Source: Mobula hypostoma (lineage: Eukaryota). Taken from it: a DNA stretch of 64,000 nucleotides. Both the position numbers and the translations under genes were made by a program. The notes beneath the pieces are model-generated. The model ran no database searches, was not told the origin of the DNA, and saw nothing but the letters and a program-made list of their open reading frames with translations. The stretch covers positions 28,460,001 through 28,524,000 of the forward strand of contig NC_086097.1 in NCBI RefSeq assembly GCF_963921235.1, given 5' to 3'. This document shows, in pieces, positions 3,147 to 54,664 of this stretch (its first letter is position 1; each line of letters opens with the position of its first letter).

Positions 3147-3944
3147 CTATACACACCCGTACTCGTACCACACCGTCTGTTGCTCACTGCTGGGGTCAGG
3201 GGAGACTGGTGTGCTCCTTGGTTCCTCTGCTCCGCGGGGAGGGTTGCTGCCAGTGGGGGACCCGCTTTGGGTCTCGTTCGACAGATCCTCGGTGCGGAGG
3301 GGGCCAGCTCTGGCTGGGGGTGCTGGATTTAGCTCACCGGGGTTGTGGCGCTGCCGCGGGCTGGGCAAGCCGCCAGGGGCCTGCGGGAGGCTGAGAAACA
3401 AGTCATCCTTGGGCGGGGCCAAGGAGAGCCGCCGGGGATCGAGGGTTCGGCAGCGGGCGTCAAGGGCCGGTGTGGAGCCTGCAGAGCTGGAGGGCGCCGG
3501 TCTCCGCTCTGGCTGGGAACCGCTGCTCCTGCAGTCTCCCGTCGACTTCCAGGTGCCTGCCGTCGCCGCCCCCCACGCCAGCTCCTGACCACGGAGGTCG
3601 GCCGAGGCCAAGCTGACTGCCCGGTTGAGTGACACCACCCGGGAACCTGCAGTCGCCGGGCGCTGAGGCTGTACCGGTTTCTCCAACAGTGGCGGTGCAC
3701 CCGGAGCCCCTCCCTGCCGGGCAGAAGGGGAGGCGGCCGTAGCGTCGTGGCCAGCCGGCCGAGGGCTGGGTCTGCTGAACTGTCCTGTCTTGGGGAGCCT
3801 CCCGTCGGGTGATTCGAATGGGGTCTTCACTGCGAGGCTGGCGGGCACCCTCGTTGCCTCCTTCCTATTCAGCTGCTCACTCATGATTGATGGCTCCCTC
3901 TTCTTGTTGAAGTAATCACTCAGCAGGTCATCTCGGAAGCTCGC
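3147..3944 (-). CDS. CCDC88C: Daple last coding exon with C-terminal PDZ-binding motif
   Basis: atgcag acceptor (phase 0); RDDLLSDYF, SLASADL, RRLSLAPPK and terminal QTVWYEYGCV-TAG diagnostic of Daple. Confidence 0.97.
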   Translation of the reverse strand, partial: ASFRDDLLSDYFNKKREPSIMSEQLNRKEATRVPASLAVKTPFESPDGRLPKTGQFSRPSPRPAGHDATAASPSARQGGAPGAPPLLEKPVQPQRPATAGSRVVSLNRAVSLASADLRGQELAWGAATAGTWKSTGDCRSSGSQPERRPAPSSSAGSTPALDARCRTLDPRRLSLAPPKDDLFLSLPQAPGGLPSPRQRHNPGELNPAPPARAGPLRTEDLSNETQSGSPTGSNPPRGAEEPRSTPVSPDPSSEQQTVWYEYGCV

Positions 3945-4225: not shown

Positions 4226-4615
4226 TCCTTATATCTATGGGGAGGAATAAACAGCCAACGTTAGGGTCCTTGGGTCTTGGACAGTAATATCACCAATTTC
4301 TTCCCCTTGGCTCGAAACATCGACTTTTCAATCATGGTCCACTCTCCTACCCAAACAGATTCCTTCTTCTCCAGCCCTTTACCTTTCCCACCCACCTGGC
4401 TTCACTTATCACCTTCTAGCTATTCTCCTTCCTCTCTCCCACCCCCCAGCTTTTTATTCTGGCGTCTTCTCCCTTCCTTTTCAGTCCCGAAGAAGGGTCT
4501 CGGCCCGAAACGGCAACTGTTGATTTATTTCCATAGATGCTGCCTGACCTGCTGAGTACCTCCAGCACTTTGTGTGTGTTACTCTCGACTTCCAGCACCT
4601 GCAGAAGCTCTGTGT
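4226..4615 (+). mobile_element. Decayed Penelope-like pseudo-LTR
   Basis: cagtcccgaagaagggtctcggcccgaaac (mutated hammerhead core) and gatgctgcctgacctgctgag tail, homologous to 34140-34246. Confidence 0.75.
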
Positions 4616-16430: not shown

Positions 16431-16723
16431 ACTGGTAGCCGACTGCCCGCTCTCCTGTAGGAACTCCTCCAAGGTCACCATTTCACTGCCTGGTGAGGAT
16501 GCTCTGGTCCGACTCTCCAGCGGCCTCTCTCTCACTCTTTGTAGCGTGCTGTATGACACCGGGCTCCTCCGAGGCATTGCAGGGTCCAGCTTGGTGCTGG
16601 GGAGCATGGTCGAGCTAGAGCGGTAGAGAGCGTTCGCTTTGGGAGCAGCTCCCACGTCTCGACTGGGGAGGAGATCTTCACTGCTGAGGCTGTCCGCTCT
16701 GGGGTCCATCACCTCCGCAACAC
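16431..16723 (-). CDS. CCDC88C: Daple penultimate exon with GBA motif (293 nt, phase 1-0)
   Basis: ttcaacag acceptor, AGT|gtaagc donor; SSEDLLPSRD and the G-alpha binding/activating motif EMVTLEEFLQES at 16449-16484. Confidence 0.95.
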
Positions 16724-19141: not shown

Positions 19142-21367
19142 CTTATTGAGCGAGGAAACGAGACAAATGGGAGTGAAGTTATCAATATCACAGGTTCACT
19201 TGTGTAAGCTACCAATAACATCTTTCCTTTCCTTGCAATATTCCACACAAAATCAAACTGGTGCCAATGGCAACCACTACAATGTGTTTGGTGGGGACCT
19301 ATAGTTGTTTCTTTACATGGAGAAACCAAAGCATGCAGAACTCATCACTGAGACTACAGCAAGGTTAATGTTTCAATGAACATGTGAGAAAAACAGCTAA
19401 CCTTGTACCTTTTTAAATGCCATTTTCCCACACTATCTCCATATCCCCTGATTCTACATACCTCTGAGCCATTCACAAATCCAAGCAACTGCTTAAATCA
19501 ACGACCATACCTTGGGGCTGTTACTCTAGGATGTTATTAAACCAGAAAGGGTGCAGGAAAGATTTACCAGGAGTGGAGGGCGTGAATTAAAAGGAGAGTC
19601 TGGACAGGCTGGAACATTGTTTCCTCTTGATCAAAGGCGACTGAGGGGTGATCTCGTAGAGGTTTATAAAATTCTGAGGGTTATGGATATGATGATTGGC
19701 CACAGTTACTTTTCCCTAGAGTAGGGGAGTCTAAAGCCAGAGGGCACAGTTTTAAGGTGATAGGGGAAAGATTTCAGAGGGACCTGATGGCCAACTTTTT
19801 CCACACAGGGGGTGGTGGGTGTATGGAATGAGCTGCTAGAGGAAGTGCGCAATTAGAACACTTAAGAGACTATCAGATAGGTTCATGAATAGAAAAGGTT
19901 TATAGTGATCTAGCTTAAACAGATTGAGTAGATCTAGCTTGGTTGGCATGGTCAATTTGGGCCAAAGGGTCTGGTTCCAAGACTCTCTCCATCTAATTCT
20001 ACTTTAAGAATATACAAAACTCTTCTTCCACTTCTCTCTTCTCACCCCCTCCTATCAGGCAGAAGATATGAAAGCCTGAAAGTACATACCCCTAGGCTCA
20101 CGGACGGATTCTATCCCACTGTCGTAAGATTATTAAATGAGAAGATGGACTCTGGACTCACAATTTACTCGTTATGATCTTGTACCTCACTGTTTATCTG
20201 TACTGCATTCTCTCTGTAGCTGTCACACTTGTCATTGTTTTTGGTGTATCTTGTTTTACTGTGTCATGAATTGATCTGTATGAACGGTTTGTAAAACAAG
20301 TTTTTCACTGTATCATGGTACACGTGACAATAATAAACCATTTCCAATACACTTTAAGGACAAAAACTCTCAAAACTTGAAATCCTCGGCAAAAAAAGTT
20401 GTCTCATCTTTACTGTCAATAGGGAGTGCTTAAGTTTCTTTAAACAGAGATCCTGAGTTCTAGATTGTCCCATGAGAGGAAACACGCTCTCCACATACAA
20501 TCTGTCTTGTGCTTGTTCGCTCTGCTAAACTCCAGAGATGTTTCAGAGTCTCTTCAGGACACAGTGAGTTAGTAAAAATCTGGACTGCACCTTCTGGGGA
20601 TGTGGTGGAATTGGAATGCATCTGGAATTTCTAAGATCAGCAGAATGCTGAGTCAATTTCCAGGGCTAATTCTCAAGTGCCAAAACGCCAGATTACTCTA
20701 CCGTACTGAACAGAGTCAGGTGGACTGTCGCACTGAACGAAGTGATGCCATATCTGGAGTAAAGATTAAAGATCAAACTGCAGGGTAAACAGGGTCAAGT
20801 GGACCATTTAAAATATACGGCTGAGGTTCTGTGGAACAGATGTGAAGAGTTCAATTCTATTTGCTGGAGAGGTCAGAACTCTGACGCATATAAATTTCAG
20901 GAAAAAGTGGAAGTTACCACACAGTGTAAAGTTCACAGGAAGTTGGAGAAGCACTTTCTATTACTGCAGTTTTGGGGTTTAGTGAAGTAGGAAGAGACTT
21001 ACAGGTTAGCTAAGATGAGCACTGTACTCCATTTCAGATTTTCATCTCTAATCTCAGTACATATTGTAGAACATGGAACAGTACAGTACAGTACAGGCTC
21101 TTCGGCCCAAACTGTTGTGCTGACCTTTTAACCTACTTTGAGATCAATCTAACTCTTCCCTCCTACATAACCTTCCATTTTTCTGTCAGGTTGCCCTTAA
21201 ATATTTAACCTTTCACCTTTAACCTATGACCTCTGGTTCTTGTCTCACCCAGTCTCAGTAGGGAAAGCCTGCTTATATTTATCCTATCAATGCCACTCAT
21301 AATTCTGTACATGCCTATCAAATCTCCACTCGTTCTCCTGTGCTCTAGGGAATAAAACTTTCCTTAC

Positions 21368-21571
21368 CTTTGGCTTTGGTGCGGTGCCAGCTGTTGAATT
21401 TGGGGGTGGTGTGCGAGGAGGTGAGATGGATGGCGGAGGTGGAGTACGCCATGGACCCCAGTTCCGCCCAGCGGTGCCGCATCCCAACGGTGCTCTCGGG
21501 GCTTGGGTTCGCACTGGGGGAGGGCGTGGAACTGAGAGAGGGCTTTCTGTCCCTCTGGCCTTCACTGGGGA
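21368..21571 (-). CDS. CCDC88C: Daple exon (204 nt, phase 1-1)
   Basis: ctctttcag acceptor, AAG|gtaagg donor; VPSEGQRDRK...MRHRWAELGSMAYSTSAIH...HRTKAK carries the ELGS/A..STSA motif of CCDC88A/C. Confidence 0.92.
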
Positions 21572-29634: not shown

Positions 29635-30190
29635 AGTTTGGAAGCTACCCAGACAGAACGTAAGATGTTGCTGTTTTAATTCCACTTCCCATTCCCATTC
29701 TGACTTGTCAGTCCATGGCCTCCTCTACTGTCGTGATCAGGTTGGGGGGAGCAACAACTTTTATTCTGTCTGGGTAGCCTCCAACCTGATCGCATGAACA
29801 TCGATTTCTCGAATTTCTGGTAATGACCCTGCCCCCATCCCTAGCATCACTCCCCACTTCCCTCTCTGACCTTATCTCTTTACCTGTCCATCACCTCCCT
29901 CTGGTGCTCCTCTCTCTTCTCTTTCTTCCATGGCCTTCTGTCCTCTCCTATCAGAATCCCTCCTTTTCCAGCCCTTTCACCAATCAACTTCCCAGCTCGT
30001 TACTTCACCACCCCCCTCCCGGTTTCACTTACCACCCTGTGTTTCTCCCTCCCCTTCCCCACCTTCTAACTCTGACTCCTCATCTTTTTTTCTCTAGTCC
30101 TGACGAAGGGTCTTGGCCAAAAATGTTGACTGTACTCTTTTCCATTGATGCCGCCTGGCCTGCTGGACTCCTCCAGCCTTTTGTGCGTGT
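29635..30190 (+). mobile_element. Penelope-like relic (endonuclease tail plus pseudo-LTR)
   Basis: FNSTSHSHSDLSVHGLL; tagtcctgacgaagggtcttggccaaaaatgttgactg, a degenerate hammerhead. Confidence 0.8.
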
Positions 30191-31348
30191 TCCCCTTCAT
30201 TCAGTCCTCAGCTGGGCCGCGCGATAACACAACACTATTACAGCACAGCGTTCCCGGTTCACTTCCTACCGATGCCTGCAAGGAGTTTGCATGTTATCCC
30301 TGTGACCGTGTGGATTTCCCCCGGGTACTCGGTTTCCTCCCACACTCCACTGACGTATGGGTTGGTCGACTGATTGGTCATGGGTGTAATTGGGGTGTGT
30401 GAGCTCATTGGGCTGGAACGGCCTGCTTCCGTACTGTATCTCCGAATAAAATAAAGAATTAAAAATGAACAGCTCATCCCTTATTTTGAGATGGTGGTTC
30501 TTGGCCCTCTCCCTGTATCCGAGCCTGTTGCATCCTGTAGGAATTCCTCAAATTCCAATGAAGTGCCCTCTAACTCTTCTAAACTCCGCAGACTACGGTC
30601 CTAGTCTACTCTGGTCTCTCATCACATGGCAAATACCACCTGTGGAACAAGCTGTGCAACTCTTCCCTGCAAGACAACTTCGTACGATGACAACTCAGTC
30701 CATTTTTATTTTGAGGGGAAGAGACTTGAACTGAATTGTGCTCCCATATTCATATCCTCTTGTAAAGAAGAGCTTTATTTGTCACACACACATCGAAACA
30801 TAGAGTAAAATGGGTCGCTTTTGCATCAAATCAAGTCAGCAAGGAGTATGCTGGGGGCAGCCTGCAAGTGTGGTCACGCTTCCAGTGCCAACAGGGCATA
30901 CCCACAATTACTAACCCTAGCCTGTAAGCCTTTGCAATGTGGGAGGAAACCGGAACACCTGGAGGAAACCCACACGGTCACAATTGGTGGCAGCGGCAGG
31001 AACTGGACCTCAATCAGTGATCACTGGCGCTGTAAAGCGATTGTGCTAGATGCTACACCACTGTGTTGCTCCCTATGCTACAGTGCCACCTAGGGTAATA
31101 ATGGCCAACATACCATTTACCCTCCTAATCGCATAGTGCACTTGCATGCTGCCCTTCGGTGATGTGTACAGGCTCACAAGGGTCCCCTTTGAACTTCAAT
31201 ACAATCTCCTACGGTTTAGCAAGTACTCCGTCTTCTGTTTTGTGCCCTATGATGGATAACTTTACTCCCTTCCAAACTCTGCATCTGCTGTGTACTTAAC
31301 TGCTGGGGGTGACATAGCAGCGTAACACTATTACAGTGCCAGTGACCC

Positions 31349-31742
31349 ATTTCGATTCCACTGCTGGTGGGAGAGACAGATAGATTAGGGATATTTCGAT
31401 TCCACTGCTGGTGGGAGAGACAGATAGATTAGGGATATTTCGATTCCACTGCTGGTGGGAGAGACAGATAGATTAGGGATATTTCGATTCCACTGCTGGT
31501 GGGAGAGACAGATAGATTAGGGATATTTCGATTCCACTGCTGGTGGGAGAGAGATAGATTAGGGATATTTCGATTCCACTGCTGGTGGGAGAGACAGATA
31601 TATTAGGGATATTTCGATTCCACTGCTGGTGGGAGAGACAGATATATTAGGGATATTTCGATTCCACTGCTGGTGGGAGAGACAGATATATTAGGGATAT
31701 TTCGATTCCACTGCTGGTGGGAGAGACAGATATATTAGGGAT
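31349..31742 (+). repeat. 44-bp minisatellite, 9 copies
   Basis: atttcgattccactgctggtgggagagacagata(g/t)attagggat head-to-tail; copy 5 is 42 bp; no spacers. Confidence 0.95.
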
Positions 31743-32074
31743 ATTTAAGAGGCACTTAGGTAGGCACATGGATGTAGGAAAAACGGAGGGTTAAGGGCTG
31801 TGTGTGCATGGGAAAGACTTTTTCCGTGGTTGGCACAACATTGTGGGCTGAAGGGCCCATACCGTGCTTGGATGTTATATATTCTGTATTCTTGTTCTAT
31901 GTACAGTGCCTAATATACATTGAGGGCTGAAGAGTCCGTATTATGCTGTACAAAGTATAACAAGCTGTATACTCTGTGGGCACGAGGAAATCTGCAGATG
32001 CTGGAAATTCAAGCAACACACATCAAAGTTGCTGGTGAACGCAGCAGGCCAGGCAGCATCTCTAGGAAGAGGTA

Positions 32075-32112: not shown

Positions 32113-34150
32113 ACTGAAAGAAGAGCTAGTAAGAGATCTGAAAGTGGGAGGGTGAGGGCGAGATCCGAAATGATAGGAGGGGGAGGGATGGAGCCAAGAG
32201 CTGGACAGGTGATTGGCAAAAGGGATATGAGAGGATCATGGGACAGGAGGCCCAGGGAGAAAGAAAAGGGAGAGGGGGGAAAAGCCCAGAGAATGGGCAA
32301 GGGGTATAATCAGAGGGACAGAGGGAGAAAAAGGAGAGAGAGAAAAAGAATGTGTGTATATAAATAAATAACGGATGGGGTACGAGATAAATAAATAACA
32401 GATGGGGTACAAGGGGGAGGTGGGGCATCAGCGGAAGTTTGAGAAGTCAATGTTCATGCCATCAAGTTGGAGGCTACCCAGATGGAATATAAGGTGTTGT
32501 TCCTCCAACCTGAGTGTGGCTTCATCTTTACAGTAGAGGAGGCCGTGGATAGACATATCAGAATGGGAATGGGACGTGGAATTAAAATGTGTGGCCACTG
32601 GGAGATCCTGCTTTCTCTGGCGGACACAGCGTAGGTGTTCGGCGAAACGATCTCCCAGTCTGCGTCGGGTCTCGCCAATATATAGAAGGCCACATCGGGA
32701 GCACCGGACGCAGTATATCACCCCAGCCGACTCACAGGTGAAGTGTCGCCTCACCTGGAAGGACTGTCTGGGGCCCTGAATGGTAGTGAGGGAGGAAGTG
32801 TAAGGGCATGTGTAGCACTTGTTCCGCTTACAAGGATAAGTGCCAGGAGGGAGATCGGTGGGGAGGGATGGGGGGGGGGACGAATGGACAAGGGAGTCGC
32901 GTAGGGAGCGATCCCTGCGGAAAGCGGGGGGGGGTAAGGGAAAGATGTGCTTAGTGGTGGGATCCCGTTTGAGGTGGCGGAAGTTACGGAGAATTATATG
33001 TTGGACCCAGAGGCTGGTGGGGTGGTAGGTGAGGACAAGGGGAACCCTATTCCTAGTGGGGTGGCGGGAGGATGGAGTGAGAGCAGATGTGCATGAAATG
33101 GGGGAGATGCGTTTGAGAGCAGAGTTGATGGTGGAGGAAGGGAAGCCCCTTTCTTTAAAAAAGGACATCTCCTTCATCCTGGAATGAAAAGCCTCATCCT
33201 GAGAGCAGATGCAGTGGAGACAGAGGAATTGCGAGAAGGGGATGGCATTTTTGCAAGAGACAGGGTGAGAAGAGGAATAGTCCAGATAGCTGTGAGAGTC
33301 CGTAGGCTTATAGTAGACATCAGTAGATAAGCTGTCTCCAGAGATAGAGACAGAAAGATCCAGAAAAAGGAGGGAGGTGTCAGAAAATGGACCAGGTAAA
33401 CTTGAGGGCAGGGTGAAAGTTGGAGGCAAAGTTAATAAAGTCAACGAGCTCAGCATGCATGCAGGAAGCAGCACCAATGCAGTCGTCGATGTAGCGAAGG
33501 AAAAGTGGGGGACAGATACCAGAATAGGTTTGGAACATAGATTGTTACAAAGCCAACAAAAAGGCAGGCATAGCTAGGACCCATACGGGTGCCCATGGCT
33601 ACACCTTTAGTTTGGAGGAAGTGGGAGGAGTCAAAGGAGAAATTATTAACAGTAAGGACTAATTCCACTAGACAGATCAGAGTGGTGGTAGAGGGGAACT
33701 GATTAGGTCTGGAATCCAAAAAGAAGTGGAGAGCTTTGAGACCTTCCTGATGGGGGATGGAAGTATATAGGGACTGGACATCCATGGTGAAAATAAAGCG
33801 GTGGGGGCCAGGGAACTTAAAATCATCAAAAAGTTTCAGAGCATGAGAAGTGTCACGAACATAGGTAGGAAGGGATTGAACAAGGGGGGATAAAACAAGG
33901 GATATACACATTCTTTTTCTCGCTCTCCTTTTTCTCCCTCTGTCCCCCTCACTATACCCCTTGCCCATCCTCTGGGCTTCCCCCCTCCCCCTTTTCTTTC
34001 TCCCTGGGCCTCCTGCCCCATGATCCTCTCATTTCCCTTTTGCCAATCACCTGTCCAGCTCTTGGCTCCATCCCTCCCGCTCCTGTCTTCTCCTACCATT
34101 TTGGATCTCCCCCTCCCACTCTCAAATCTCTTACTAGCTCTTCTTTCGGT

Positions 34151-34188
34151 TAGTCCTGACGAAGGGTCTCGGCCCGAAACGTCGACTG
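34151..34188 (+). ncRNA. Minimal type I hammerhead ribozyme motif
   Basis: UAGUC-CUGACGA-A-GGGUCUCGGCCC-GAAA-CG-UC-GACUG: core boxes, stem I UAGUC/GACUG, stem II, palindromic minimal stem III. Confidence 0.75.
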
Positions 34189-37100
34189 TACCTCTTCCTA
34201 GAGATGCTGCCTGGCCTGCTGCGTTCACCAGCAACTTTTATGTGTGATACTCCGTGGGCCGTAGGTGTAGATGCTGCGATAGTATCCATGCAGGATAAAT
34301 GAAGGGGTGTGGGTCGGCTCTAAGAGAGGGGAATGAAGTTAAAACTGCACGGAAACGGGTGGAGTTTACGAGCAGGATTTTATAAATTGCATACCCATTT
34401 CCCAATGGCTAACTCCCTTGGTTCCAGCACCATCTGCTGGCCCAGTCACAAACTGCAGCTTGGCCCTGCTGTCCATTTCAGGCTCTTCACAAGATGCACA
34501 ATGTTCACCACTCTGCTGAGCCTGTTACTGGGTGGTAAAATGCAGTGAAGACCGGTTCTCAGCATCTGACATACAGAGGAAGGACGTGGATGGCGATAAC
34601 GTCGCTGGGTCAAAGGGTGCAAACCTTGTCGCCCCATTATGGGAAGGATATGGAGAGGGTGCAGAAGATGTTCATCAGGATGCTGCCTGGATTATCGGGC
34701 ACGAGCTACAAGGAGAGGTGGGACAAACTTGTGTTTTTTTCGCTGGAGTGATGGAGGCGGTGGGGAGATCTGATAGAAGTTCATAAATTTACAAAGAGGC
34801 ACAGATAGGATAGGTCGTCGGAATCTTAGTCTCAGGGTAGAAATGAAGATGATGGTTAGAGATGATTACCTTCATTTTGTCACACGTACATTGAAAAAGT
34901 GAAATGCATCGCTTGTGTCAAATCAAATCAGCGAGGATTATGTTGGGTATCAGCGTGACAAAGCATGCCCGTTACAAGCCCTGGAATTTGAGAGGACACG
35001 AAGTACGTGGAGCAAACCAATGTGGTCGTGTGGAGAGTTGACAGTCAGTGGCAGGAATTGAACCCAATCTTACAGCTGGCCGCTGTAAAAAGCACTGAGC
35101 TCACCGCTGTGTTACCACGCCGAAATACCGGATGACATGCATTGAAGGCGAGGTCAGGAAATTTAAAGGAGATGTGCAAAGCAAGTTTTAATTTACAGTA
35201 CACAGAGATTGGAGGGTGCATGGAAGGGAAAGTGATGGAAAGCAGATAGGATGGCAGTGTTCATGAGGCTTTTTGACAGACACGTTAATGTGTGGGGAAC
35301 GGGGGTGGGGGTGCGGGATATGGATCACGCGCAGACAGATGAAAATTAGTTTAATTCATCATGTACAGCACAGACTTTGTGGGCCAAAGGCCCAGTCCTG
35401 TGCTGTACTAAAGCTTGAAGACAAACATCATTCTGAAACATTATATTAATTCAATATAAATTCTTAAATATACATATACATGTAAACCTGTACAGTGGAG
35501 GGAGGGTGTAATTACAGTTTTAACACTTTCCATTAAAAACATGATTTTTCATAGAAGGCAATAATACAGTATGTACAGACAGTACAGATATAGAAAATAT
35601 TAACATATCTAATCACTGTCACATAATGCCTGCAGTTGAAATCACTGTTAAAAATAAATAATTGTTTTGAAAAAATCGTTAAAAACCATCTGGAGCCCAG
35701 TTCAGCAACTGTGCATTATTTGCAAAACTCAGACAACAGGAGTGCTGGAAGCGGTATGCAGACTCAACACGATACAGTTAGTTCAGCAGGGACAGACAAT
35801 CAGCTGCACGCCTCCCTGCCTCACCTCCTCACCTCCCCACTGATACCAGTTATACTTCACTGAAATGATTACCACACATACAAAACTAATGTATCAGTAT
35901 TACTGAGATTTAAAGATAAAGATGAGCTTTAGAAACCTACAGTGAAACGTGTCATTTGAGTCAATGACCAACACAGTCCAAGGATGTGCTGGTGGCAGCC
36001 CACAAGTGTCACCAACATAGCATGCCCACAACTCACCATGAATATAAACTCCTTACAGATGGCGGCAGAATTGAACCCAGATGGCTGGTGCTGTGAAGCA
36101 CTATGCTAACTGCTACGATTCCCACTTACACTAGCGAGCCCTCTGCTGACCTCATTCACTGTCGACAAGCACACACATCATCATGGAGGATCTCAGCCTA
36201 AAATGCTGATTATCTACCCCCCTCCACAGATGCTGCCCGAGTTCCTCCAGCATTCTGTTTGTGTTGGGAGCTGGATAACTCTCAGCATGTCGTCACCCTG
36301 CTTGGAATATTTACTGTATCACAATCGTCTCCGCTGAAAACAAAGTGTTGAATACTTCAGGGCATGCATTTAAGGTGAGAGGGGGAAAGTTTAAAGTTTA
36401 AAGGAGGTGTGTTATAGAGCCGTAGAGCGCTACAGCACAGAAACAGGACCTTCGGCTCATCTCGTCTGTGCTGACCCGTTACTTTGCCTAGACCCATCGA
36501 ACTGCACCTGGACCACCGACGTCCAATTCTTGTACTTGTCCAAACTTCTCTTAAAGGAAGTGCAGGGAAGTTTATTTAAAATTACACACACTGGTGGGTG
36601 GCTAGAATGGGCTGCGAGGGTTTGTGGTGGAAGCAGATTCAATAGTGGTGTTTAAGAGGCACATTACTGTGCAGTGAACAGAGGGATAAGGATTACATGC
36701 AGGCAGTAGAGATCTAGTTTAATTCAGCATCGTTTTTGGCGCAATCATCTTGGGCCTGTTCCTGCACCATGGTATTAGAACATAGATCATTACAGCTCAG
36801 TACAGGCCTTCTGGCCCACAATATTGTGCCAACTCTGTAACCTACTTTAAGGACAATCTAATCCTCTCCTCCCACATAACCTTCCATCTTTCTTTCATTC
36901 ATATACCTATCTGAGAGGCTCTTTAATGTCTCTAATGTATCCTCCTCTACCACCACCCTGGCACCCACCATTCTCTGCATTAAGAAAAAACTTACTCTGA
37001 CATGCCCACTATACTTTCCTCCTATCACCTTAAAATTATGCTCCTCCCCCATAATAGACATTTCAGTCCCGGGAAAAGTCTCTGTCTGTCCACTCTACTT

Positions 37101-38743
37101 ACCTATGCCTCTTATCATCTTGTACACCTGTACAAAGTTCTACGTTTTATTTAGTTAATGCTGTCTCAGAATAGCAAACAAGATTTAGGGTTTAAGTTTG
37201 TGGGCAAGCTGCCCCTCATGCTTTTAATCCTTGATTTTTGGTTTTAGTTTTCAATGCTAACCGCCCCCATGATTGCCCCACACTCTTCACCACCATCAGA
37301 CGAGCTCCACCTTCCCTCAGGATTACAAGCTAAATGACTCTGTTCTCCTCTAAGACATCGGAAGCTGCTGGGAAAGGAAGGGAGATAAAGATAATATCAC
37401 GCCGAATAGAAGCAGGGAGAGCAACGAGAGTGGCAGCAATGGCACATAACAGGACGGGCAAGGAACCGGTCAATCCTGAGACACATGTTATGGAAGAGAC
37501 TGGGGAAGGAGAGCACAAGACAGGAAGCTTCATGGGCAACAATCATTGCATTGTAGCTGGCCACTTATAAGCGTACGTGTAAGCAAAGGTAATGAAGTTC
37601 ATAATTTGGGGTGAACTTTTTGTTTACAGTGAAACTTGTACACTTTGTGGACTGCAGAGAAGGGTGTCACTTGTTCTCACCTTAGTTGTGTGTTGGGGAA
37701 AAAAACATTCACAGTCAAATGGAGAGCTATTTACCCAGCATGCAAGGCACAAGGGAAAACTCTATTCACTGCATGGAGCTCTATGGGCACCCAGTCCTCT
37801 TATAGAGAGGTTTCCCTGTCACTCTGCATGCTGGGTAGAAAGGTCCTCCATTGCATCATAGACATTTGCTTCACCAAATCCCATGCTGAGCCGTATGTTG
37901 TGTATGCCAAGGTTGTCTGTGTTTGTAAGTTGTGTCTGTAGTGTCATGGGTCACTTGTGTGCCTTAGTGTGCAATTAACCCACATTTCTCAATAACCACC
38001 GGTGCCTATGGGCATCGGGTGTGAGCAGTATGAGGAACTGTCTTTCCTGTGGCAATAGCTGTGGAGAAAGTGGATGAGGATCTTTTTCCAAATCCATCTG
38101 GTGAAGGAGGGAGTGGTGTCTGTCCGAGGGAAGGCCAAAGTCCATTCGCTGAGCAAGCACGCGGATGCATCTGTCCACCTGGCAGAGAGTGGGGTGAGTG
38201 TGGGGCGGTGTGTGTTGTCTGTCAGCATTCACTTGTACAAGTTTCACTGTCTAATTAAAAAAGTGCCAGAAGGGACAAATTCAAAAACTAAAAAGTCATC
38301 CCTTTATGACAGTTTTCAGTTCTTCAGAAACACACCGAATTTGGGTTTATAAATGAAACATTAACGCATTGCAGCACAGAAGCGTGTTGTTACTTACATC
38401 TGAAATGCTCAGAGACTCAAATGCTCGGTTTAATTTTGTGTTGCACCATCCGAAATCATGGATGACTGGCTCTACTTTGAAATCATTGGCACCAACGTGC
38501 CAGATGTAGTATTTCAATTGATCTGTTTTAAATTTAATTTTAATTCCTTTACACTTTTGGAATTAGCATTGACATTGACATCATCACAATCTGGTAGGCA
38601 ATGTGGCCCCTGGCTTCTCTCGTGTGCCTCCATTCTGTGTTGCTCTTGGGTGGGGATGGTGATGGGACGCGAGGAATAGAGGGGATTAGAAATTGCCACA
38701 GTCAGAGATGTGCAGAAGTGAATCACTGGCAGAGTCCGACATG

Positions 38744-38874
38744 TCATTGGAAGACCACAGACGGAGACCCCTGGACAGCGAACGGTGTTGGTTGGTTGGT
38801 CGGGCTCAGCGATTTCTCCTGGAGTTTTTCTTTACTTTTACTCCTTAGAAAGGCAAACTTTTTCCGGGTAGGCA
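38744..38874 (-). CDS. CCDC88C: Candidate alternative terminal exon of Daple (phase-1 acceptor, 43 aa then TGA)
   Basis: tttcttttctgacctcacttaag acceptor; in frame with the 42566 donor gives VPTRKKFAFLRSKSKEKLQEKSLSPTNQPTPFAVQGSPSVVFQ*; followed by unique UTR-like DNA. Confidence 0.6.
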
Positions 38875-39109
38875 CTTAAGTGAGGTCAGAAAAGAAATTC
38901 CAGCACCCCAGTAATCGGGGGAGCAGAGAAAGAGAAATAAGGAAAAAAATGAAATTGAAAACAAAAATTACATTAAATAAAATCATAGCAACAATTCCCC
39001 ATCCCAACCAGAGCTAATTTCATTCTGACTAGAATCATCAATGGAAACTGATTTGCTGCATCATTTCAGTAATAATCATGCAAACTTTTCAAAAACATTA
39101 TTTTCTAAA

Positions 39110-39920
39110 TGTACTGCTTGGCTCAAATGTCATCTATAAGTTTGCCAATGACACCACTGTTGTGGTAGAACCTCAGAGAGCAATGAGGTGGCGTACAGGA
39201 GTGAGATACATGATTGAGTGGCGTCACAACGCTGTGCACGCAGTGTCAGCAAGGCCAAGAACTGACTGCAGGCTTCAGGAGAGGGATGCAGGGTGAACAA
39301 CACCAGTCCTCTTTGGAGGGTCCGTGCTGCAAAGGGTCAGCAGCGCAGGGGCCCTGGGCACCAGCATCTCGAAGAATGCCTCCTGGGCCCAGCAAAGCGA
39401 CCATGAAGAAGGCAAGCCAGCAGCTCTAACTTGTTAGTTTTAGGAGGTTTGGTATGTCACCAAAATACCCTAGCAAATTTCTACGGATGTACGATGATGG
39501 ACAACATGCTGAATGATTGCGTCACAGCCTACCATGGACGCTCCAATGCACAGGATCACGAGGGGCTGCAGAGCGCCGTAGACTCAGCCAGTTCCATCAC
39601 TGGCACAGCCCTCCCGACCACTGGCGATGTCTCCAAAAGGCAGTGCTTCAAGAAGGTGGCATCCATTATTAAGGACCCTCACCATCTGGGACGTGCCCTC
39701 CCTCATTACCATCAGGAAGGTGGTACAAGGTCTTGAAGACCAGCACTCAACAATTTAGAAACAGCTTCTTCCCCACCGTCATCAGATTTCTGAACGGTCC
39801 ATGAACACCACCTTATTATTCATTTTTTGCAACTTATAGTAATTTTATTCCTTTGCACTGTACTTCTGCCACAAAGCAACAAATTGCATGTCACATGCCA
39901 GTGATAACACATCTGATTCT
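39110..39920 (+). mobile_element. Old Rex1/Babar-type LINE fragment
   Basis: IYKFANDTTVV RT motif; ASIIKDPHHLG; heavily mutated. Confidence 0.75.
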
Positions 39921-42565: not shown

Positions 42566-42783
42566 CTTTGCTGGGTGTACATGGAGATGGTTCCTCCAGT
42601 GAGTTGGATCCTTGTGAGGATTCATCCAGACTCGCTCTCTGTCCCTGAGAAGCATTCGGCCCGGTCGCGACCTCTGCTGGTTCCATTTGGCGGGCCTGCC
42701 CTTCGACGGCCTGCTTCTTGGCACTCTCCTTTCTGGGTTTCATGAGCTTAACCAATGCCTTTGCCGTCACCCAGTTGTTCTTC
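42566..42783 (-). CDS. CCDC88C: Daple exon (218 nt, phase 2-1)
   Basis: ttctttccccaaag acceptor, AAG|gtaagg donor; KNNWVTAKALVKLMKPRKE resembles the Daple-type AKALVKL.KPKKE motif. Confidence 0.94.
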
Positions 42784-53151: not shown

Positions 53152-53637
53152 CTGCAACACAAACCGTGCGGCCCCCCCCGTCAGTTGGCGTGTGGGGCGC
53201 AGGAACGGGGAACTCGCGCTGGAACCCCGCTAGAGGGCGGCGCAGAGCTCTGAGCACCCCATTACCAGGTAGACATGAGGGCAGAGGAATCTAACAAGGA
53301 CTGGAGATAATTAGTTATGAAGGGAGATTGGCTCGGCTGGTGTGGGTTGTGTGGAAATCAAACTTAACGCTTTCAGAGGCCTATCTGGGGGTTGGAGGAC
53401 TGACTGTGTGTGTGTTGGCGGGTGGGAGAGAGGAAAGGGGCTTGTTCTGCTGTTGCTTGTTGTGTTCTGTGTTGTTCTGCTCAACATTGCGGCTATGCTA
53501 CGATGGCACTGGAGAGAGTCGTGACGCTTCCATCTACCCCAACTACAAACTTGGGTGTGTTGGCTGTTAACACAATCAATGCATTGCACTGTATGCTTCG
53601 GTGTGCATGTGATAAATAAATCTGGATCTTGAATCTT

Positions 53638-53829
53638 GGTGAGGCAGCGAGGGAGTCGCTCGGTGAGGCAGCGAGGGAGTCGCTCGGCGAGGCAGCGAGG
53701 GTGTCGCTCGGCGAGGTAGCGAGGGTGTCGCTCGGCGAGGTAGCGAGGGTGTCGCTCGGCGAGGTAGCCAGGGAGTCGCTCGGCGAGGTAGCCAGGGAGT
53801 CGCTCGGCGAGGTAGTGAGGGAGTTGCTC
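53638..53829 (+). repeat. 24-bp CpG-rich minisatellite, 8 copies
   Basis: gg(c/t)gagg(c/t)agc(g/c)aggg(a/t)gtcgctc tandem units. Confidence 0.95.
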
Positions 53830-54664
53830 GAGTGGACCACAAAGCTCCCTAAAGTTGAGCTCCTGGTGTCCAGTCAATGCTTATTCCTTATCCAATTGCA
53901 GTTTTCACTGGCTTGTTCTGGGAGCTTGTTGTGTGCACATTGGCTGTTTTAGCATTTTGTAGAGAGTGAAATGATTTAGCTTTTAAAAAGGCACCAGGGA
54001 CAAGCACTGAGCACTCTTGACTCCGACCAATGGATCCTAAGCACCACCCCTTCTTCTCACATCCTCCCGCATAGACCCCACCCATCAACTTCCTACACAG
54101 GACACCACCCCCCCCACACCCTCCCTCGTAAACCCCACACCTGAACTTCCCACATAGGTCCCACCCACACCTTCTCTCACAGGTCCCACACCCCCAACCT
54201 GAATGTATGGGCCCCACCCCTCAGCCGTCCTCATAGACCTTACCCACCTTCTCGCACAGGCTTGTCCACGCCAGAACAGGCCCCACTCTCACCTGTCCTC
54301 ATGTGCTTCAGCACCCCCCCGCCTTCTGCTCACACAGGCCCAAACCCCACCTGTTTGTAACGGCCTCGCCCACGCTTGACTGTACAACCTTCTCAGCTCC
54401 ATTCTAACTTGAATACAGGCTCTGATCTCAGCTGGCTGTATGAGCCAAGCTCTGTCCCTGCTTGTCTGTAGGGGCTCTGGCTCTGCCCAATTTGAATGCA
54501 GGGGCTAGGTTCCGCCCTCATATTTGCAAAAATTCCAGGCTCTGCCCCCATTTGAGTTTAGGCCTCACCTCCTTGTCCAGGCTCCACCCCTTATCCGTTG
54601 GCTCTGAGATGGGGCTCTGCACTCAGCCCCAGTGAACCGTCCACCCGTGTACCTGGCCGCTCAC

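Follow-up and report, generated by a model that had tools for sequence, protein, structure and literature searches.

Nearly all work on Daple, the product of the gene CCDC88C, has concerned its GBA and PDZ-binding motifs, in relation to neural tube closure, cilia polarity and hydrocephalus. The 3′ part of this gene lies on the minus strand of a 64,000-nucleotide stretch of the genome of the devil ray Mobula hypostoma (contig NC_086097.1, positions 28,460,001–28,524,000), here called the window. One of its introns, 42565–21572, contains an exon that opens at 38874 and would give a short Daple with a different tail and neither of the two motifs. Sequence comparison indicates that CCDC88C has here an alternative last exon of great age, found in shark, frog and other jawed vertebrates. 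The best overall explanation, to which we give a probability of about 0.55, is that the old last exon produces a retargeted adaptor that binds dynein and is tethered to membranes.

Related isoforms and paralogues

Human Daple-V2 is a mirror image of this arrangement. It starts from an exon in intron 25, the part that it shares with Daple begins at residue 1482, and from this first exon it gives the tail alone, with the GBA and PDZ-binding motifs and no coiled coil (PMC6702192). In colugo Daple the matching exon boundary is at K1481, and because the two residue counts agree, the Daple-V2 intron appears to be the same as window intron 21572–42565. None of the human variants V2–V7 listed in PMC6702192 is a body-only form with a new tail. 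A CpG-island scan for a V2-like promoter in the ray intron marked 10 of 207 scanning windows (29972–30472, 32372–33172, 34072–34372) and is uninformative; the last two stretches are inside retroelement-like open reading frames, and none is near the downstream exon.

The paralogue Girdin (GIV, CCDC88A) offers a case where alternative 3′ processing, in GIV versus GIV-L, sets the presence of the PDZ-binding motif and junctional localisation (PMC8042451). There, however, both forms keep the G-protein motif, and what is switched is whether an intron close to the very end is retained, with no upstream last exon. Girdin also has a segment, KRLPF[LM]RNR[PS]K[ED]KDK...RRSMSMNDL, at the same protein position as the Daple tail, between the SNSLE[DE] and ELGSMA[FY]ST stretches. 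Homology of the two had been proposed in the first-pass annotation of the window and is borne out: a tail profile aligns with the Girdin segment over its first 22 columns at an hhalign probability of 90.4 (E 1.4e-6), with a score that none of 150 column shuffles attains. The Girdin segment differs in lying within the protein, in frame with the tail that carries the GBA motif, and it has neither RLR[FL]WSSxD nor a stop. Girdin model P0032 has intron-like residues just ahead of VALKRL, and the comparison of positions is at the protein level alone.

In overall size and plan the short Daple is like CCDC88B (Gipie/HkRP3), which has a HOOK domain, a coiled coil and a short tail without YEYGCV in proteins P0094, P0077 and P0060; these we take to be of the CCDC88B family, which presumably has no GBA motif. 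CCDC88B is reported to interact with dynein and dynactin (PMC5533585). Homology to the CCDC88B tail (RRKLSSR...PR[QH]RFRQR) was considered and rejected, as the hhalign probability is 0.5 and 20 of 150 shuffles reach the score.

The stingray Hypanus sabinus has a Daple model, X2 (XP_059816975.1, 1535 aa), with the same junction, CTPSK/VPTRK, and the same last exon. It differs in having an intact tail of 61 residues, versus 43 in the window frame, and it is an automatic model, for which no functional study was found. With the shark record XP_078065052.1 it shows that the exon, first described as hidden, was already carried in databases. Automatic annotation has the exon in two cartilaginous fishes, and alternative last exons are in any case common. 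What is new is the conservation across vertebrates, a second tail motif, the switching between internal and terminal use, and a frameshift in this ray. In a literature search with most subscription journals outside its scope, neither a body-only Daple nor the second motif turned up, and the passages of bioRxiv 2025.09.26.678488 that were compared mention no such isoform.

The exon in the CCDC88C intron

Ray proteins map to 11 exons of the gene between 61876 and 3150, and these match residues 1067–1930 of named Daple proteins. The nearest named protein is from Mobula hypostoma itself (XP_062901250.1), with 265 of 265 residues of the last exon identical; the counts are 258 in M. birostris, 229 in Hypanus and 225 in Hemitrygon. 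Long Daple has 1930 aa and carries both the GBA motif, which we take to be VTLEEFL, and the PDZ-binding motif, and both are present in the gene as it stands in the window. The intron is phase 1 at both ends. Its phase-1 donor at 42566 is common to the short and long forms and is joined to either 38874 (short Daple) or 21571 (long Daple). Table 1 lists the features.

Table 1. Positions in the window of features of the short and long forms of Daple
Feature	Position	Strand	Remark
Upstream constitutive exon (KNNWVTAKALVKLMKPRK...CTPSK)	42566..42783	-	donor AGC AAA G/GTAAGG at 42566
Acceptor region	38875..39014	-	AG 38876-38875, pyrimidine tracts, 137-nt AG-free zone
Motif 1, basic-hydrophobic (TRKKFAFLRSKSKEK)	38810..38874	-	homologous to Girdin segment KRLPFLRNRPKEKDK
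Short ACCA repeat	38786..38800	-	4 extra bases versus Hypanus and organism B; shifts the reading frame
Frameshifted product end (QPTPFAVQGSPSVVFQ) and TGA 38746-38744	38744..38794	-	translated frame
Ancestral second tail half, out of frame (QHRSLSRGLRLWSSNDMSDSASDSLLHISDCGNF, TAA 38688-38686)	38686..38790	-	31/37 identical to the end of Hypanus X2
3′ untranslated region, ~3.3 kb	35414..38743	-	far end inferred from contig ends 35414-35500
Competing long-form exon (VPSEGQ...ELGSMAYSTSAIHL)	21357..21571	-	start 21571; end approximate
GBA motif core VTLEEFL	16458..16478	-	missing from short form
PDZ-binding C-terminal end YEYGCV	3150..3167	-	missing from short form

The exon does open at 38874 in phase with the donor, as first read, and the frame from there encodes 43 aa, VPTRKKFAFLRSKSKEKLQEKSLSPTNQPTPFAVQGSPSVVFQ, up to the TGA. 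The acceptor had been called pyrimidine-rich. Its pyrimidine share is 0.70 at −27 to −5, which is ordinary for the gene (range 0.43–0.87). The AG-free zone, in contrast, is the longest of the 12 acceptors scored, the next being 77 nt. Four of these 12 acceptors (51034, 42783, 38874, 19141) end in AAG, not CAG or TAG, a share that seems high relative to expectation.

A profile made solely from four non-cartilaginous tails ranks the exon site first and second among the 2672 stop-to-stop frames of the window, with scores of 27.8 and 25.4 bits; the next best frame has 8.2. The two matches sit in different frames (38875–38747 for the first tail half, 38805–38689 for the second), and therefore the ancestral product was something other than the 43-aa peptide. 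The exon is almost certainly genuine.

The absence of a convincing donor, also claimed at first, does not follow from the sequence alone, as there are two phase-1 GTs in the exon, at 38841 with 4 of 9 consensus matches and at 38835 with 6 of 9; automatically picked donors of the gene score 4–8, and at least two of nine picks look misplaced. Support for terminal use comes from the contigs, which cross both GTs unbroken in all four runs compared. The short product encoded by this genome has 1517 aa and motif 1 alone. As predicted, the HOOK domain and the whole coiled coil remain in it, and the GBA and PDZ-binding motifs, both of which are past the exon stop, are missing. It is a product of the Daple gene, but not a signalling-type Daple. 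The HOOK domain (PF19047) is at residues 20–164 of P0008 (E 2.8e-21), and its exons are outside the window.

Contig evidence for splicing and terminal use

Contigs of four of nine listed sequencing runs (X1, X2, X5 and X9) were compared with 35200–39400. Runs X1 and X2 are two samples of organism A from one study; X5 is from organism B and X9 from organism C. Splicing from 42566 to 38874 predicts that the fit to the window should end at 38877, because the upstream exon and the intron end in the same three letters, and it ends at that base in all four runs. The adjacent stretch 38878–39006 has zero contig cover in all four. That this unique intron flank is uncovered is seen from the depth in bin 38866–39006, which equals that of the 12 fitted bases in it alone.

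In runs X2 and X9 the fit starts at record position 27. A contig that begins where the short and long junctions branch apart should start to fit at just this position, if the assembly uses 31-letter words and given one further letter common to the two junctions. These branch-type contigs imply that both forms occur in one sample. The contig of run X1 has 7667 letters, of which 4816 are off the stretch, and this fits a leader of ~400 nt followed by the coding sequence as far as the donor, which is 4423 nt long; that of run X5 has 1222 letters off the stretch. The lack of a branch in the contigs of X1 and X5 points to samples in which the short form predominates.

Together with the Hypanus RefSeq X2 model, the contigs mark the exon as an expressed alternative last exon. 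They also agree with its terminal use as first proposed, continuing unbroken to 36027 (X1), 36363 (X2), 36225 (X5) and 38409 (X9), although rare onward splicing is possible. They pass ATTAAA at 38544, 38538 and 38434 unbroken, and those of X1, X2 and X5 also pass AATAAA at 37151 and 36576. Further contig pieces cover 35500–35871 and 35414–35989, with 35647–35915 in organism C, and the transcript likely ends near 35414–35500; run X5 has no cover at 35482–35904, from which we draw no conclusion. No AATAAA is present in 35700–35300, where AATATA at 35447 is a weak candidate and ATTAAA is at 35355. The non-coding stretch 35647–35915 is also present in the more distant organism C with 37 differences in 269 letters, and may be a conserved element of the 3′ untranslated region.

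Conservation of the tail

A HMMER scan with Hypanus residues 1372–1535 gave 80 hits, and the proteins were scanned for motifs. Four of the 80 end in the tail: those of the shark Mustelus asterias (XP_078065052.1) and the frog Ascaphus truei (MEE6494339.1), P0035, whose upstream part resembles teleost Daple, and P0095, an unspliced fragment with four cluster mates (P0095–P0099). The exon is terminal in this ray, in P0008, P0017, P0022, P0035 and P0095, and in L001, a metagenome contig with a compact CCDC88C gene whose exons are closest to amniote-type proteins. In L001 the upstream exon ends AAC AAA G/GTAAGG, and a phase-1 acceptor ~1.6 kb farther along leads into AAQRKKIAFLRSKIKDK...RLRFWSSSD...ELGDF and then TAA. 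The vertebrate exons at 4335–10200 of L001, in a metagenome collection, are host DNA, and the introns are far shorter than those of the ray.

Aligned tails have two motifs. Motif 1 is [KR][KR][FI]xF[LM][RK]SK[SN]x[DE]K, and motif 2 is RLR[FL]WSSxD, which is specific to Daple and reads GLRLWSSND in Hypanus. Stingray, shark, frog, P0035 and P0095 all preserve both motifs and their reading frame, while the spacer drifts; conservation of the codons had been named at the outset as a check on the exon. Sharks and tetrapods separated more than 400 million years ago. The tail has ~54–61 residues in most jawed-vertebrate records and is longer in shark, where that of P0017 (Mustelus asterias) extends ~20 residues past the stop point of ray, frog and other tails. 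A reading of motif 2 as a PP1-docking (RVxF-type) site was rejected, as it is not compatible with the RLW found in the copies of ray and shark.

Several searches came back blank. The tail was not seen in the mammalian records (colugo X1 and X2, rabbit and a bat), which are few models and include no searched mammalian intron. Word-based protein searches gave 0 of 2 scored candidates with the 43-aa peptide and 0 of 28 with the Hypanus tail; these blanks are not evidence, because short isoforms cluster under long-form representatives. The ESM Atlas had no usable match for P0095 or the Hypanus tail, and Pfam no family for P0001, P0095 or P0022.

In the mormyrid fish Paramormyrops kingsleyae, three of five Daple models (P0111, P0025 and P0114) use the homologue as an internal cassette of 49 aa. 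The cassette is at residues 1477–1525 of P0111 (model X1), is not in model X2, and has a degraded basic motif. Against the P0035 tail it aligns gapless over 41 columns, and 0 of 2000 shuffles reach the score; the numbers of shuffles that do so are 0 for P0095, 12 for frog and 100 for Hypanus. Since the exon is internal in Girdin and Paramormyrops and terminal in the records above, it is probably older than the Girdin–Daple duplication and has changed, in one direction or the other, between use as an internal and as a terminal exon.

A frameshift between the two motifs

The first 27 residues of the 61-residue Hypanus tail match the window frame (24 identical), and the last 37 match another frame (31 identical). 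The window has 190 nt here versus 186 expected, with the surplus in the ACCA repeat at ~38800–38786. The insertion sits between motifs 1 and 2 and cuts motif 2 from the product. The polybasic tail of the first-pass annotation is right with respect to basic motif 1, but a second conserved motif belongs to the tail and has been lost here by frameshift.

An assembly error is excluded as the cause, because runs X1 and X2 (organism A) match the window with 0 differences and 0 gaps over 2.5–2.9 kb and thus carry the identical allele. The frameshift is very probably real in the RNA of this organism. The contig of run X5 (organism B), ~98% identical to the window with 48 differences in ~2650 letters, has four letters absent at 38787. 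For organism C (X9), a four-letter gap at 38787 is not among the gaps listed, and the contig has 7 gap letters.

It is possible, with the odds somewhat against it, that the 4-nt insertion is a private allele or slip in one animal, and that the species normally makes a tail of 62 residues. The insertion is within a short tandem repeat, a relative ~98% identical is without it, and the two runs with the identical allele belong to a single study and may come from the assembled individual. On the other side, both samples and the assembly have the same allele. This alternative touches the frameshift alone and is compatible with the best explanation.

Proposed function and alternatives

The frame kept from sharks to tetrapods implies an extra job for the HOOK and coiled-coil body. 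Perhaps the tail swap retargets short Daple. The N-terminal part would dimerise and bind dynein–dynactin; lacking the PDZ-binding end, it would not be brought to junctions by PDZ proteins of the Dishevelled type, and lacking the GBA motif it would not activate G-alpha-i. Two adjacent basic-hydrophobic patches, the first of which is in the upstream constitutive exon, might tether the dimer to acidic membranes or microtubules, and motif 2 may be a docking or phosphorylation site for a putative partner or kinase. We infer that short Daple is a signalling-silent motor adaptor, of which this ray would have a partly disabled copy, and hold this mechanism to be about an even chance.

Published reports describe Daple 1–545 as co-precipitating dynein and dynactin (PMC5533585), the N-terminal region as dimerising and residues 1390–1867 as binding microtubules (PMC8094116). 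Forms without the PDZ-binding end are neither cortical nor junctional, and the GBA motif is needed for constriction (PMC7300155; PMC6504902). Human truncations lacking both motifs are described as recessive loss-of-function alleles (PMC6504902), which leans toward an adaptor-only reading. Passages of PMC3344933 gave no source for lipid binding by Girdin. A basic-hydrophobic score was calculated over 19 residues with a threshold of 0.6 from bioRxiv 2023.09.28.559937. The Hypanus short form exceeds the threshold at 1411 and 1483, reaching 0.86 at the latter, whereas the long Mobula form does so at 1411 alone; the 43-aa peptide of the window has 0.75.

A number of points weigh against the explanation of an old last exon that yields a dynein-binding, membrane-tethered adaptor. 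With respect to the RNA, the runs are taken as RNA by guess alone, and X5 is more probably DNA; arithmetic, and not the letters beyond 38877, points to the partner exon; and run X2 also has intronic pieces, 39134–39271 and 39249–39400, at a depth of 3–6. No poly(A) tail was seen in the contigs and an X2 piece at 35200–35385 lies past the proposed end, and therefore the 3′ end is not fixed. Of the named Daple records from rays and sawfish, 14 in number, just one has the exon at its end, and the internal cassette of the three Paramormyrops models also has to be reconciled with a last exon. With respect to function, the Girdin segment has a basic-hydrophobic score of 0.66, the peak in the fish-like P0035 is on motif 2 and not on motif 1, and the frameshift shows that one animal, at least, survives with no motif 2. 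Neither protein-level nor functional evidence of the short form was found. Daple did not conclusively activate dynein motility (PMC5533585).

Short Daple might instead be a dominant-negative or decoy, as was suggested when the exon was first noticed, forming heterodimers with long Daple or competing for dynein and so damping G-alpha-i and Dishevelled signalling. Dimerisation of the N-terminal region (PMC8094116), the branch-type contigs of X2 and X9 with both forms in one sample, and the suggestion by Redwine et al. that daple and girdin might block other dynein activators (PMC5533585) are in keeping with this. A pure decoy, however, needs no two conserved tail motifs, the unbranched contigs of X1 and X5 look as if the short form were nearly alone, and the human truncations are described as recessive (PMC6504902), a weak argument in that such alleles may be degraded. 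We consider a decoy unlikely. It is more doubtful still that the exon is an off switch at the RNA level, which diverts transcripts from long Daple in some tissues while the peptide tail matters little. Regulated exons often have long AG-free zones, and the one here is 137 nt; the 3′ region is long, with one stretch also in organism C, and the frameshift is tolerated in this ray. Yet the frame and both motifs are kept from stingray to frog as well as in P0035 and P0095 while the spacer drifts, and even the out-of-frame half in the window is still identical to Hypanus at 31 of 37 residues.

The question of internal use bears on one more alternative, in which the exon is composite and is also spliced onward through 38835 or 38841 to 21571, to give a long Daple with a Girdin-like insert. 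Both GTs are phase 1, with 38835 matching the consensus at 6 of 9 positions; in Girdin the homologous segment is internal; and three of five Paramormyrops models carry their cassette at the same position. The contigs listed nevertheless cross both GTs unbroken in four of four runs, though rare variants are lost from contigs, and such an insert after the upstream exon is absent from all 13 long records of rays and sawfish. A composite exon is quite improbable.

If the adaptor explanation is followed further, intron 25 can be looked at as an ancient split point from which the two halves of Daple are issued apart: tail-only signalling (V2) and a body-only motor adaptor with RLR[FL]WSSxD as a docking motif. 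The body-only form would come from the jawed-vertebrate ancestor, be dominant in some tissues, and serve transport or cortical tethering independently of G-proteins and Dishevelled. This is a tentative idea and on balance an unlikely one. If it is true, the short form would confound work with Daple knock-down, knock-out and C-terminal antibodies in frog and fish, and the devil-ray frameshift would amount to a natural experiment in which one tail motif is parted from the other. The short form would in any event escape C-terminal probes or antibodies, and its role is testable in Xenopus or zebrafish if the genes there keep the exon.

Other features of the locus

The intron 21572–42565 also contains a tandem array at 31349–31746 with a 44-base unit in 9.1 copies and 98% matches. 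At 32428–34028 there are minus-strand open reading frames of 381 and 192 aa; these are CpG-rich and have the look of a reverse-transcriptase/GIY-YIG retroelement, presumably of the Penelope-like type. Another intron has a minisatellite at 53311–53880 with open reading frames on both strands and repeats such as LAERHPRY.

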